Below are positions 31,636 through 41,349 of a stretch of DNA of 64,000 bases, in pieces (the stretch's first letter is position 1; each line of letters starts with the position of its first letter). This DNA is from an uncultured Chloroflexia bacterium (lineage in GTDB: Bacteria; Chloroflexota; Limnocylindria; Limnocylindrales; CSP1-4), in NCBI GenBank assembly GCA_963791725.1, contig CAWBTQ010000008.1, forward strand, positions 360,359-424,358, in the 5' to 3' direction. Made by a program: the position numbers and the translations under genes. The notes beneath the pieces are model-generated. The model saw only the letters and a program-made list of their open reading frames with translations. It was not told the origin of the DNA and did not search any database.

Positions 31636-33460
31636 CGATCCGGCGAAGGCCGGGCTGGGCGTAGGCATTTCGCCAGTCGGGAAAGGCAACTCGGTCAGCC
31701 AACCGGCGACCTCGTCGAACCTGAACCTTGCTCGCGGGGGCGTGGTCGCATGCCTGGTGCGATCGATTCCGCTGGCTGCCGTAGTGGCGGTCGGACTGGC
31801 CGTACGGGCAGCCTACCTCGGCGACCCGCAGCTATTCCGGGACGAGGCAGCATCCTGGTACCTGGCAAGCCAATCGACCGCCGACATGCTCCGGCTTGTC
31901 TCTCACGAGACATTCCCGCCCCTCTACGTACTCCTGCTCAAGGTTTGGATGACGGTCTTTGGAGACTCGGAGGGGGCGCTCCGATCTCTGTCGCTCTTGG
32001 CGGGGCTTGGCACCCTCCTCGTGACGTGGCAGTGGGCGCGCGACACGTTGGGCGACCTTGGGGCTTTGATCGCGGGAGCCCTGGTCGCGCTCTCTCCTGC
32101 CATGGTCCTGGACTCACGAAACGCGCGCATATACGGTCTCGAGACGTTCTTCGCCACCGGCGCGTGGTGGCTCCTGTGGCTTCTCATGGCTCGCGGGGGC
32201 GGCTGGTCCACACGGCACCGGCTGGGCGTTGCGGCAGCCCTTGCCTTGGCGGTGGGCGGCGAGGTCTGGACGATGTCGCTCGGAATCCCGACCGCCGGCC
32301 TCCAACTGTTACTTGCCCTGATCGGCCTGGTTTGGCTTCGCGACCATGCATCTCGTCTCGCGACCGGATCCGTCCTCCTCGGAGCCGCCAGTCTCGTGCC
32401 GTGGCTGCCGAACCTGCTCGCCGTGGCCCTGAACGGTCAGACATTCTGGACGCCTCGTCCTGATCTTGGCTCGATCGCCGTGACGATGCGTGGATGGCTG
32501 CCCGGCGACCTCGGCGGCGTCTTGTCGCCGCTTGTTCTTGTGGCAGCCGTAGGGTGCGCGCTCATCGGCGTTGGGGCAGCGCTCGTTGGGCGGTTGTCAC
32601 AAGAGTCGGCGAAGGAACCGAGACCCGGCGCTCCGCCGGCGGTCGTTGAGAATCGCCATCTGGCCATCGCGATCGCTTGTGGTTTTGGGCTGGTCCCTGT
32701 CGTATGGATGTACTCACAGGTCCACTCCGTCTACGACGCGCGCTACCTCGGAGCCGCCTTTCCGCCTGTCGCGATTGGGATCGCCGCGGGGGTCGTGGTG
32801 ACGGCGAGGTATTCGAGGCGGCGCCTCGGGTTCGCCCGACGAGTTCCGACCGGCCTTCTGGCGATCGCCTTGATCGCACCCATCGCATGCGGGACGGCCG
32901 TGGGTGCTGCTCGCGCGGTCGAGTCGCTACGGCGCGAAGCCGCGATTGAACCGGGTCGGCAGATGGCACAGGAGCTTGCCTCGCGAGCCCGCGCCGGCGA
33001 CGTGGTCATAGCGCTCAACGCCGAGACGTATTTCCCGCTCCGGTACTACCTGAACGACACCGGCGACGCCCAGTGGCCGGTGCTAAGCCTCTACAACTGG
33101 TACCGGCCGACGAACTCGTTCTTCACGGGTTGGGAAGACATCCAGGACGCGAGCATCGTCGACGCCACACGGGTCGCTGCGGCGGGCTGGAGCGGGGCCG
33201 TTCACTTGAGTCCGGGCGGCAAGCTGTGGCTCGCGAGCCTCGTGAATCCCGGTTACGAGTTCTCCCAGTTCGTCCCGCCGGCGTCGGACGAGCTCCGTGT
33301 GGTCGAGACCATCTTCCTGCAAGGCGGCGGTGTCACGGCCGAGATCCGCGAGACCGTGCCAGTCGGTGCCCCGTCGCTCCGGCCATGTTCTGGACCTGTG
33401 GGGGAGGGGATCACGCCCGGATCCCCTCTCGGTGGCCCTATCACACAGCTCCGGAACTAG
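31628..33460 (+). CDS. GT-C family membrane glycosyltransferase (GT39 PMT / ArnT-like; polyprenol-phosphate-sugar dependent)
   Basis: A 610-aa protein with more than 10 predicted TM helices, an N-terminal GT-C region (...RDEAASWYLASQ...PLYVLLL...) and a C-terminal soluble domain. Overlaps the GT2 stop by 8 nt, so likely co-translated. Confidence 0.75.
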   Translation: MASDPAKAGLGVGISPVGKGNSVSQPATSSNLNLARGGVVACLVRSIPLAAVVAVGLAVRAAYLGDPQLFRDEAASWYLASQSTADMLRLVSHETFPPLYVLLLKVWMTVFGDSEGALRSLSLLAGLGTLLVTWQWARDTLGDLGALIAGALVALSPAMVLDSRNARIYGLETFFATGAWWLLWLLMARGGGWSTRHRLGVAAALALAVGGEVWTMSLGIPTAGLQLLLALIGLVWLRDHASRLATGSVLLGAASLVPWLPNLLAVALNGQTFWTPRPDLGSIAVTMRGWLPGDLGGVLSPLVLVAAVGCALIGVGAALVGRLSQESAKEPRPGAPPAVVENRHLAIAIACGFGLVPVVWMYSQVHSVYDARYLGAAFPPVAIGIAAGVVVTARYSRRRLGFARRVPTGLLAIALIAPIACGTAVGAARAVESLRREAAIEPGRQMAQELASRARAGDVVIALNAETYFPLRYYLNDTGDAQWPVLSLYNWYRPTNSFFTGWEDIQDASIVDATRVAAAGWSGAVHLSPGGKLWLASLVNPGYEFSQFVPPASDELRVVETIFLQGGGVTAEIRETVPVGAPSLRPCSGPVGEGITPGSPLGGPITQLRN

Positions 33461-33689
33461 TCGGCACGTCCACGGAGTGTCCGTCGGAGACCCCAACGGA
33501 TCGGTCGCCCTGCCCTCAACCTCGATAACAGCGGGCTTAGAACAGATGTACGCTTTCATGAAGCGTATCGCCCTGGCCGACGGCGCGGATGTTCACGGAC
33601 AGTGGACAGACCCACCAGCGGCAGGCCCCAACCCCACAAGATGTGGACATACGCGTTGCCCCTCGCAAGGGATGCGACGTACAGTGATT

Positions 33690-33847
33690 CTTGCCCGGAG
33701 GGGCCACGGATACCGAACGACTCGACCAATTCTCGGATCGGCCGAACGATGCGGGGTCGCGGTTCCTCCGGGCGTTCGTTTGCCGTCACAGAGCGGCCCG
33801 CCGCTGCACGAGCGCCGGCGGGCCGCTTCTATGTGTGGGCCTCAGGC
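33690..33847 (+). repeat. copy 2 of the repeat element (shorter core; carries an internal 11-bp GC hairpin)
   Basis: CTTGCCCGGAGGGGCCA (33690-33706)...GGTTCCTCCGGGCG (about 33761-33774)...CTTCTATGTGT (33826-33836) GGCCTCAGGC (33838-33847). Same order and orientation as copy 1. Confidence 0.5.
33793..33837 (+). terminator. candidate intrinsic terminator (11-bp perfect GC stem, 12-nt loop, TTCTATGTGT tail)
   Basis: GCGGCCCGCCG ctgcacgagcgc CGGCGGGCCGC followed by ttctatgtgtg. Lies inside repeat copy 2, about 330 nt downstream of the GT-C gene. Confidence 0.4.
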
Positions 33848-33946
33848 CTCAGTTCGGGCGTAGACTACTTCCGATAAGAGAGGTTATGTCCGTTCTCTGC
33901 GAATCTAGGAGCGGCGTGGCATTCCTGAGCCCGAGACCGGGAGCCG

Positions 33947-34336
33947 TCAGCTGTCCTTCTCGAGCTGGCTGATGCGCTGGTTGGTCACCCCCAGAAGCAT
34001 GCCGGTGTCGCGGGAGGTGTAGCCGGAGGCTCGGATCTCGCGGACGGCATGACGGACCGCGGCCGACGCCTTCGACTGGGCCAGCTCGGCCGCTTCACGG
34101 GCTCGCAGCGCTTCCTCGATGGAGTCCTTGAGGCTGCCGAGCGAGGAAAGATCGGGTTGGACGGTGACGTCGAAAGCGTCCTCAGGGACGCCGAGGAGCA
34201 AGGCGATCGCCTCTCTGGCCATCGACTCGACCTGGTCGAGCCGACGCGCCTGCGAATGTACGCCAGGGAAGTCCGGGACCTCGATCGCCCACCATCGACC
34301 AGTCCTTGTCGCCGTTATCCGATATGTGGACTTCAT
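33947..34336 (-). CDS. hicB: type II toxin-antitoxin system HicB family antitoxin
   Basis: MKSTYRITATRTGRWWAIEVPDFPGVHSQARRLDQ..., the HicB N-terminal RNase-H-like domain, plus a C-terminal HTH (SRDTGMLLGVTNQRISQLEK). Its ATG overlaps the hicA stop as ATGA. Confidence 0.8.
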   Translation of the reverse strand: MKSTYRITATRTGRWWAIEVPDFPGVHSQARRLDQVESMAREAIALLLGVPEDAFDVTVQPDLSSLGSLKDSIEEALRAREAAELAQSKASAAVRHAVREIRASGYTSRDTGMLLGVTNQRISQLEKDS

Positions 34337-34548
34337 GACCGCCACCAGCCTTCACCGAGCTCGGCTTCAAGCGATCGACAGATAGAAACCGCCGTCAACT
34401 CGTTGACCTCCCGATGCCTAGGGACGGTCGTTTGCAGCCGACCGCACCGCCACAGTTCATGCCTTGCGCCCTGGCGAACCAACTGCCACGGGACTCCCCT
34501 ATCGGCAACCGCCGCGCCAATCTGCCGCAGTAATCCCAGGCGCCGCAC
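34333..34548 (-). CDS. hicA: type II toxin-antitoxin system HicA family mRNA interferase toxin
   Basis: ...RGVPWQLVRQGARHELWRCGRLQTTVPRHREVNELTAVSICRSLE matches the HicA dsRBD-like core (GW..VR..GSHH...VPRH...IL.QLG). The segment is lower-GC than its flanks. Confidence 0.7.
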   Translation of the reverse strand: MRRLGLLRQIGAAVADRGVPWQLVRQGARHELWRCGRLQTTVPRHREVNELTAVSICRSLEAELGEGWWRS

Positions 34549-40452: not shown

Positions 40453-40630
40453 GAACGGACTGTCGCGGAAACGCCGCCTGATTCAAACCGTACGAGCGGC
40501 GGATTCCCGGAGCGCCGGATGTACTGCCGCCGCCTGACTGTCGGCGGCTGACGGCAGCGCGTCAATCAGCCGCGTCGGTCATCTCGCGGAATTGCGCTCA
40601 TACAACCGTACCGCCCAACGTGAGCGAACG

Positions 40631-40664
40631 AAAAGGCGCCCGGGTTCAGGGCCCGGGCGCCTTT
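40631..40664 (-). terminator. strong bidirectional intrinsic terminator (13-bp perfect stem AAAGGCGCCCGGG/CCCGGGCGCCTTT, 7-nt loop, A/T runs on both sides)
   Basis: Lies 18 nt downstream of the secreted-protein gene stop (40682). aaaaGGCGCCCGGGttcagggCCCGGGCGCCtttg. Confidence 0.65.
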
Positions 40665-40681
40665 GCCGCAAGCGAACCAGG

Positions 40682-41164
40682 CTACCAGCCGGTAACGGCG
40701 AACCAGCGGTCCACGCCCGGCGCCGGAACCCCGGCGAAGAAGACCGCCGGCGCGAGGCAGGTCGACGGCATCGCGATCGGCTGGTCGAGCTGCGCGTCGC
40801 CGGCCGAGGAGAACGGAACGACGGAGGACATGGCAACCGGCGTCCCTGCGCAAGTCAGGATGGCCTGTCCTTCAGGGATGGGGTTGGTACCGGCATGGGG
40901 GCCGGTCGCCAGAACCAGGCCCTCAACCTGCACCTGCAAGCGCCCGCTCGCGGAGATCGAGGCCGAGCCGGCCCGGATCCGCCAGGGCAGGCCGCCAGCC
41001 TGGACACCGAAGAGCGTCTGGTTCACCTGCGCCGCGGGCAGTCCGGCCATCGACGATTGGAAGTGCGGCGCGCCGCCTGTATCCGCCAGGACTGAGAGCG
41101 ACGTGGCCGCGAGAAGGGCGCCGATAGCGATTGCGATGCCGGTCAGGCGAAGAGTCCGAAGCAT
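40682..41164 (-). CDS. small secreted protein with signal peptide, unknown function
   Basis: An internal ATG with AAGGAG 7 nt upstream gives MLRTLRLTGIAIAIGALLAATSLSVLA, a predicted Sec signal peptide, then a 130-aa Gly/Ala/Pro-rich domain ending ...RWFAVTGW. Confidence 0.6.
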   Translation of the reverse strand: MLRTLRLTGIAIAIGALLAATSLSVLADTGGAPHFQSSMAGLPAAQVNQTLFGVQAGGLPWRIRAGSASISASGRLQVQVEGLVLATGPHAGTNPIPEGQAILTCAGTPVAMSSVVPFSSAGDAQLDQPIAMPSTCLAPAVFFAGVPAPGVDRWFAVTGW

Positions 41165-41349
41165 GATCTTCTCCTTCAGTACGGTTACGGGACAGGCTAC
41201 GTAGCCGTAGAGGAGGCAGTTTCCGCTGCGAGTCTGGTCCCACGACGCGCGACCGGGAGCGGGCCAGGCTCGACGACGCCCTGCGGGCGCGTGTACCACG
41301 TGGCGACGCGACTCGGTTGCCGCCCGAAACGATCTGCCAGAGTTGAGGC

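Follow-up and report, generated by a model that had tools for sequence, protein, structure and literature searches.

A probable zone of local gene reshuffling beside a conserved glycosyltransferase gene and a candidate small-RNA gene in an uncultured Limnocylindrales bacterium

We analysed a 64,000-nucleotide stretch of contig CAWBTQ010000008.1 (the window), a high-GC sequence (GC 0.69) from an uncultured member of the Limnocylindrales (Chloroflexota), and focused on the segment at 31.6–41.3 kb, which separates a conserved glycosyltransferase gene from a UbiE-fusion gene. An earlier inspection of the letters alone (the sequence-only reading) had singled out about 8 kb of this segment as a possible decaying prophage or genomic island, or as an undescribed envelope- or defence-related gene set. 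Listing of open reading frames (ORFs), family scans and three-frame translations located the genes of 33.5–41.3 kb where that reading had placed them. For comparison we used about 45 related loci (numbered with the prefix L), among which L004–L007 are the closest; L004 shares about 85% nucleotide identity with the window in the flanks. Genes and their breaks were called by homology. A six-frame Viterbi caller based on GC content at third codon positions (GC3) was set aside as too strict: it returned 35.5–41.3 kb as non-coding (GC3 there is 0.76–0.8) and did not separate operon junctions from frameshifts. A consensus promoter and terminator scan of the region gave nothing above chance, and hairpins were found by inverted-repeat search and from alignments.

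The left border is formed by a GT2 polyprenol-phosphate-sugar synthase gene (30877–31635), the conserved anchor of the locus, whose product is 92% identical to a protein of a Candidatus Limnocylindrales metagenome-assembled genome (MAG); its best relatives all bear that name or ‘uncultured Chloroflexia’. It is followed by a GT39/PMT_2-type membrane glycosyltransferase gene (31628–33460, + strand; PF13231, 33.4 bits; TIGR03663 weak), for which no homologue was found in L004–L007. The slot 3′ of GT2 is occupied by this GT39 gene in the window and by a GT87 gene in L004 (10752–12134) and L007 (11192–12559), and is empty in L005 and L006; the GT39 and GT87 genes are interchangeable polyprenol-dependent membrane glycosyltransferases. 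Because the GT39-like gene is missing from all close relatives and only GT2 is conserved, the variable zone begins at about 31.64 kb, and the ‘conserved glycosyltransferase pair’ proposed as the border from the sequence alone is not a pair.

Next comes an unannotated small-RNA-like gene (33656–33826, + strand), overlooked in the sequence-only reading and described further below, and then a hicAB pair. The hicB antitoxin gene (33947–34345, − strand) matches PF15919 above the cutoff (35.3 bits for a cutoff of 27); the DNA-binding part of its product gives only a weak HTH_37 match. The hicA toxin gene (34333–34548, − strand) lies 5′ of hicB with a 13-nt overlap. Orthologues of both genes are present in L005–L007 (58–91% identity for hicB), and the hicA–hicB order on one strand is kept in these loci and in many metagenome contigs. 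The window pair thus resembles type II HicAB toxin–antitoxin (TA) systems (PF07927 plus PF15919) in having a small HicA-like ORF 5′ of, and overlapping, a HicB-like ORF, with the His motifs kept: all HicA orthologues share the PRH motif and the His of GxxH. It differs in that the window HicA stays under the PF07927 cutoff (17.6 bits for 27) and finds no PDB relative by sequence, either alone or as a profile. Five of the seven HicA orthologues do match the family (best E 2e-6), and we predict that 33947–34548 is a type II HicAB pair, as had been supposed. The ‘lower-GC patch’ said to surround it is real in direction (0.64 compared with a mean of 0.69) but mild and not distinctive, several other 1-kb bins being equally low.

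The next gene (34637–36198, − strand) encodes a DUF8403+DUF8402 lipoprotein with the lipobox LVAGC and is split over three frames, as first read from the sequence; alignment with intact orthologues confirms it. Compared with the intact genes of L084 (89% nucleotide identity) and L086, it carries an extra base at ~35525 and another at ~35011. Once repaired, it encodes 519 aa with no stops and has 85 full-length homologues (35–88% identity), which carry PF28445 and PF28444. The protein shares with the DUF8403/DUF8402 lipoproteins of Chloroflexota and Actinomycetota the two domains, the lipobox and the length. It differs from them by its two frameshifts and by what follows the gene: in six of six other loci (L084–L089; for instance, the pair spans 3605–5790 in L084, 10001–12192 in L086 and 5889–8167 in L088) a DUF3558 lipoprotein gene lies directly 3′, whereas no DUF3558 homologue was found anywhere in the 64-kb window. 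This gene pair, common to Chloroflexota and Actinomycetota, is a lead in its own right, since DUF3558 proteins are co-expressed with ESX-4 substrates in mycobacteria and, in M. abscessus, are reportedly over-represented in the ESX-4/SigM regulon (PMC13491425).

On the opposite strand, a DDAH-family gene of the amidinotransferase fold (36474–37289, + strand) is also doubly frameshifted. It had been described as broken over three frames; the double break is confirmed, but the three segments lie in two frames only (0, 2, 0). Comparison with the intact orthologues of L006 and L084 (78% protein identity) places the loss of one nucleotide at 36522 and the gain of one at ~37090. The repaired product aligns end to end with the DDAH of P. 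aeruginosa (PDB 1H70/3RHY; residues 3–256 with 5–250, E 2e-21). The alignment preserves the GD motif and the columns of the catalytic Cys and His, and it also brings the motifs HL(A/K)T and GG(x)(S/T)C into register. Unlike dimethylargininases, it falls far under the NCBIfam equivalog cutoffs (NF045660, 142 for 340; NF045658, 92 for 450), and the two frameshifts likewise set the window gene apart from that of P. aeruginosa. The product is predicted to be a guanidino-modifying enzyme. Overlapping the DDAH stop codon is a further ORF not noticed earlier (37286–37513, + strand), which matches positions 76–105 of the 106 of PF18029 (E 0.0024, below the cutoff) and has no counterpart in the related loci. 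Because its last ~30 residues correspond to the C-terminal end of the domain, it probably represents what is left of a truncated Glyoxalase_6/VOC gene.

The 565-aa product of the following gene (37545–39242, − strand) is a right-handed beta-helix protein of the CASH/NosD-like type, matched by PF13229 in six stretches (269 bits), and it lacks a signal peptide, both points in agreement with the sequence-only reading. The protein and its orthologues begin directly with the helix cap, which is pectinesterase/DUF1565-like. The six PF13229 stretches and the cap are those of CASH/NosD-like repeat proteins; the missing signal peptide and the lack of any effector or fused catalytic domain in the window protein are not. 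A search of 1.8 billion representatives gave 5786 matches to the superfamily and about six close relatives, and the homologues stand in cellular, not phage, contexts unrelated to that of the window. In some distant relatives (P0004, P0005, P0006 and P0011), cytoplasmic PF13229 modules are fused to TIR, ADP-ribosylglycohydrolase or AAA domains and have a sensor-like look.

The gene at 39424–40452 (− strand) encodes a membrane-anchored cell-wall protein of the Apf/IsaA type (NF052397, 75.9 bits for a cutoff of 40, residues 244–342). It consists of a cytoplasmic N-terminus of ~100 aa, one transmembrane segment, a Pro/Thr/Glu linker and a C-terminal lysozyme-like domain; no PDB relative was found by sequence. 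The likeness to Apf/IsaA/SceD-type proteins is confined to the C-terminal 100 residues, which are above the cutoff and carry the E-x-E...SGAYGL...GWY signature. In contrast to these proteins, a transmembrane anchor and a cytoplasmic N-terminus with a duplicated motif replace the signal peptide and the LysM or other wall-binding repeats. The motif is ~12 aa long with the core DQWGI(Q/E)FP and occurs in two copies 47 aa apart (residues 10–75; window 40140–40430). The L084 orthologue (59% identity) preserves both copies unchanged, whereas the sequence between them has diverged. The product had been called a membrane-anchored IsaA/SceD-like lytic transglycosylase with tandem repeats. Anchor and Apf/IsaA domain are indeed present; the Pfam SLT family (PF01464) reaches 16.5 bits, under its cutoff of 21.3, and the ‘tandem repeats’ reduce to two spaced motif copies. 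We describe it as a putative peptidoglycan-cleaving protein of the Apf/IsaA type, whose conserved duplicated cytoplasmic motif is a further lead.

The last gene before the UbiE fusion (40682–41164, − strand) encodes a 160-aa secreted protein with a superoxide dismutase-like beta-sandwich fold and two conserved Cys. An assignment as Cu/Zn superoxide dismutase was rejected, the metal-binding His and Asp residues being missing. Its homologues occur in unrelated contexts. A perfect 13-bp inverted repeat bordered by runs of A and T (40632–40664) lies 3′ of the gene; it is the strong terminator anticipated from the sequence, and the predicted hairpin could act in both directions.

The closest loci, compared at nucleotide and protein level, are strongly syntenic with the window as far as the end of GT2 and once more beyond the start of the UbiE fusion; the content in between varies, so that the earlier description of ~8 kb unlike its surroundings holds. 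L004 lacks all of 33.9–41.3 kb and carries none of the eight genes; between its GT2 and UbiE-fusion genes lie the GT87 gene, a conserved 200-nt element and a small ORF. The other three close loci carry subsets that contain hicAB: alone in L005, immediately beside DDAH in L006, and in L007 5 kb away, behind GT87, TetR and other genes. In L084, a Logan contig, the UbiE fusion is followed by a small ORF, the cell-wall gene, the lipoprotein gene, DUF3558 and DDAH; the cell-wall gene is divergent from DDAH in the metagenome contig L144, and DDAH lies a few kb from the anchor in L134. More distant homologues of the lipoprotein are found in unrelated contexts. In the relatives, then, hicAB, DDAH, the genes for the cell-wall protein and the lipoprotein, and the UbiE fusion are again found close to this anchor but differently ordered and oriented; they belong to the local gene stock of the lineage and have been shuffled.

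We consider, with a probability of about 0.7, that 31.6–41.3 kb is a recombination-prone neighbourhood of independent modules that has been reshuffled, that it qualifies neither as an island nor as a system, and that its indels are likelier consensus errors than signs of old pseudogenisation. We infer the following course from the arrangement of the relatives. The zone opens just 3′ of a conserved anchor made up of the GT2 gene and the small-RNA gene. It would hold small independent transcription units that do not work together (glycosyltransferase, HicAB, lipoprotein, DDAH, glyoxalase scrap, cytoplasmic beta-helix, cell-wall and secreted protein), of which members of the lineage carry differing subsets in differing orders. 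Repeated local insertion, deletion and inversion, rather than the arrival of one mobile island, would have produced the present layout. In its conserved flanks with varying cargo, its small lineage-specific genes and its local inversions and transpositions the locus resembles chromosomal plasticity zones, which often contain TA modules (HicAB here; PIN/VapC in L006, L084 and L088). Unlike them, its borders show no tRNA, no repeats and, among the ORFs scanned, no integrase or insertion sequence (IS) element, and its cargo is largely native and merely reshuffled.

The part of this reading that concerns the indels required a closer look. Intact orthologues (78–88% identical) fix the positions of the four 1-nt indels: ~35011 and ~35525 in the lipoprotein gene, 36522 and ~37090 in DDAH. 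A fifth, a 1-nt insertion at ~50135 in a class-V aminotransferase gene (48799–50290, + strand) that shifts its last ~50 codons, was called against two short-read relatives (L004 and L005); since it lies outside the flagged region, frameshifts are not limited to that region. The indels belong to the deposited assembly, because the public protein collection contains a 342-aa fragment (P0031) that is annotated on the same 1.16-Mb contig and is identical to the first segment of the window lipoprotein. Repair of the lipoprotein and DDAH genes leaves no in-frame stops; neither gene has nonsense codons or larger deletions. Three-taxon Nei–Gojobori estimates gave ratios of non-synonymous to synonymous substitution (dN/dS) on the window branch of 0.15 for the lipoprotein and 0.19 for DDAH, no higher than for the intact orthologues: both genes have been under purifying selection on this branch. 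The indels are thus either consensus errors or very recent. MAGs named in the style MFD.../contig_N are Nanopore-only assemblies with one round of Medaka polishing (PMC12313526), and the window probably comes from the same project. The strain was also detected, with 99.87% identity, in sequencing run ERR12035932. Split genes were also seen in related long-read contigs: hicB in two frames in L007 (16297–16690), a beta-helix gene called as 327 + 320 aa in L001 (3496–5598) and a molybdopterin oxidoreductase in two pieces in L003 (727–1538). They are consistent with residual indel errors in such assemblies. For the four indels, consensus errors of a long-read metagenome assembly are more likely than old pseudogenisation, and at slightly better than even odds the indels are assembly errors, perhaps with mixed strains in the variable region.

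Several observations weigh against the reshuffling-and-error reading. Four of the five detectable indels fall within 2.6 kb, with one in ~20 kb of other comparable coding sequence, so that random error at a uniform rate fails to explain their crowding. Long homopolymers contain none of them, and only one of the five is a deletion, the rest being insertions, which is not the classic Nanopore error pattern; the Nanopore origin of the window is itself only probable. The dN/dS test has little power for a loss of function confined to the final few percent of branch length. The lipoprotein gene has lost its usual DUF3558 partner and a glyoxalase remnant sits next to DDAH, both of which fit real local decay. 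Finally, GC3 is 0.67–0.77 in the GT39 (0.77), hicA, beta-helix (0.77) and cell-wall genes, compared with 0.83–0.90 in core genes; some of these may therefore be recent arrivals.

These points bear most directly on the strongest alternative, according to which a segment at 34.6–37.5 kb is decaying and its lipoprotein and DDAH genes truly became pseudogenes, very recently, their function having been lost after hicAB replaced the DUF3558 partner and the adjoining glyoxalase gene was truncated. The crowding of the indels outside long homopolymers, their presence in the deposited sequence, the DUF3558 gene missing only here and the scrap at 37286–37513 all fit it. It accounts less well for window-branch dN/dS values at or below those of the intact orthologues, for genes free of nonsense codons and larger deletions with their catalytic residues kept, for a similar 1-nt insertion in an unrelated conserved gene at ~50135, and for split genes of the same kind in sister long-read assemblies. 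We regard it as possible, at somewhat under even odds.

A degraded prophage or acquired genomic island, in which a phage would have left behind the tailspike-like beta-helix gene and the peptidoglycan-cleaving gene and the TA pair would have stabilised them, fares much worse. The stretch is missing from the closest relative, L004, the GC3 of the beta-helix, cell-wall, hicA and GT39 genes is mildly lower, and a beta-helix, a muralytic domain and a TA pair do make a suggestive combination. Against this, no tRNA or tmRNA was found in the 64 kb, and direct or inverted repeats flanking the region (30–46 kb) were only short, imperfect and at chance level. Pfam and NCBIfam scans of ORFs in 31.6–44.3 kb, some small ORFs being left unscanned and PHROGs not run, gave no recombinase, transposase or other phage-protein match. 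The statement of the sequence-only reading that integrase, transposase and tRNA are lacking is thereby upheld within this scope, and its island or prophage remnant is not. In addition, hicAB, DDAH, the cell-wall gene and the lipoprotein gene occur separately and rearranged near the same anchor in relatives, the beta-helix repeats are of the CASH/NosD type with cellular homologue contexts, and the muralytic domain is of the cellular Apf/IsaA type with a membrane anchor. We hold this origin to be very unlikely. Hardly credible is a single undescribed envelope-remodelling or defence module formed by the beta-helix, cell-wall and secreted proteins, with or without the lipoprotein: although the three genes are adjacent on one strand, TIR or ADP-ribosylglycohydrolase fusions occur among distant relatives of the beta-helix protein and the cell-wall gene adjoins the lipoprotein gene in L084, their homologues show no co-occurrence in the contexts examined, a strong terminator separates the secreted-protein and cell-wall genes, the beta-helix protein has no export signal while the other two are extracytoplasmic, and PADLOC-DB 2.0 gave no match for seven proteins at E up to 0.01.

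With reshuffling of independent modules as the preferred reading, the locus also carries a warning for work on phyla that are poorly sampled: in their long-read MAGs, odd genes with frameshifts can mimic a novel island or defence locus, here resolved as ordinary, independently distributed families in a reshuffled neighbourhood. The best by-product of the analysis, and the sole element that might merit follow-up, is the strongly conserved candidate small-RNA gene, for which there is no Rfam family.

This gene opens with a promoter-like site, TTGCCC-N18-TACAGT (33656–33685, + strand), accompanied by a GTGGA motif at 33643–33647. It is followed by an 83-nt hairpin (33692–33774, + strand) with two internal loops, each containing GAACGA, and an apical CUCG loop, then by a spacer that contains CCGUCAC and, at 33793–33826 (+ strand), by a GC-rich terminator hairpin. 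The 83-nt hairpin is non-coding and is the most conserved sequence of the whole stretch: it is 80–92% identical in L004–L007, exceeding the conservation of the adjoining genes. A pattern scan and a covariance model recovered the element in 32 further metagenome contigs, a class of pattern-scan matches with a 24-nt gap having been discarded as an unrelated coding gene. In 31 of the 32, it is co-oriented with the same GT2 gene and lies ~200 nt 3′ of it; no copies were found with the covariance model beside more distant GT2 genes (L008–L083). Over 31 distinct upstream sequences, the promoter-like consensus reads GTGGATAAG..GTTGGC-N17/18-TAGATT and keeps a constant spacing to the hairpin.

The alignment supports a structured RNA read from the + strand. 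Standard pairs are formed in 99% of 926 cells, G–C to G–U changes and invariant G–U pairs are compatible with the + strand only, and the covariance model scores 109 bits on that strand compared with 33 on the other; compensatory changes are few (two pairs). Rfam 15 gave no match at gathering thresholds, and chance-level matches only at E up to 10. Two known elements were considered for the hairpin and rejected on the general features of such elements. An integron attC site was discarded, as there is one hairpin per locus and its sequence is far too conserved. An SRP/4.5S RNA was discarded because no SRP domain IV motifs were seen; Rfam gave no match for either.

The DNA just 3′ of the small-RNA terminator was compared among contigs. 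The hicAB pair occurs there on the + strand in L120, L133, L140, L160 and L165, and on the − strand in L145, L170, the window, L005 and L006. Pairs near the terminator are 40–77% identical to that of the window, and some contigs hold a lone hicB-like gene instead. The presence of hicAB or lone hicB-like genes in either orientation suggests that the site is an insertion hotspot. We give an even chance to the full proposal, in which 33656–33826 would be a new structured small-RNA family with its own promoter and terminator, fixed beside the polyprenol-phosphate glycosyltransferase gene throughout a Limnocylindrales lineage, its 3′ DNA serving as a lineage-wide hotspot for hicAB cassettes in either orientation and for envelope genes. 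The RNA may regulate envelope glycosylation genes or influence the adjoining TA module.

Rearrangements were also observed at and beyond the right border. The sequence of the window at 43.2–46.6 kb is likewise missing from L004. The UbiE-fusion gene and a conserved 85-aa ORF (42882–43139, − strand) have swapped their order, with no inversion, between the window (41350–43139) and both L004 (12584–14409) and L084 (537–2384).

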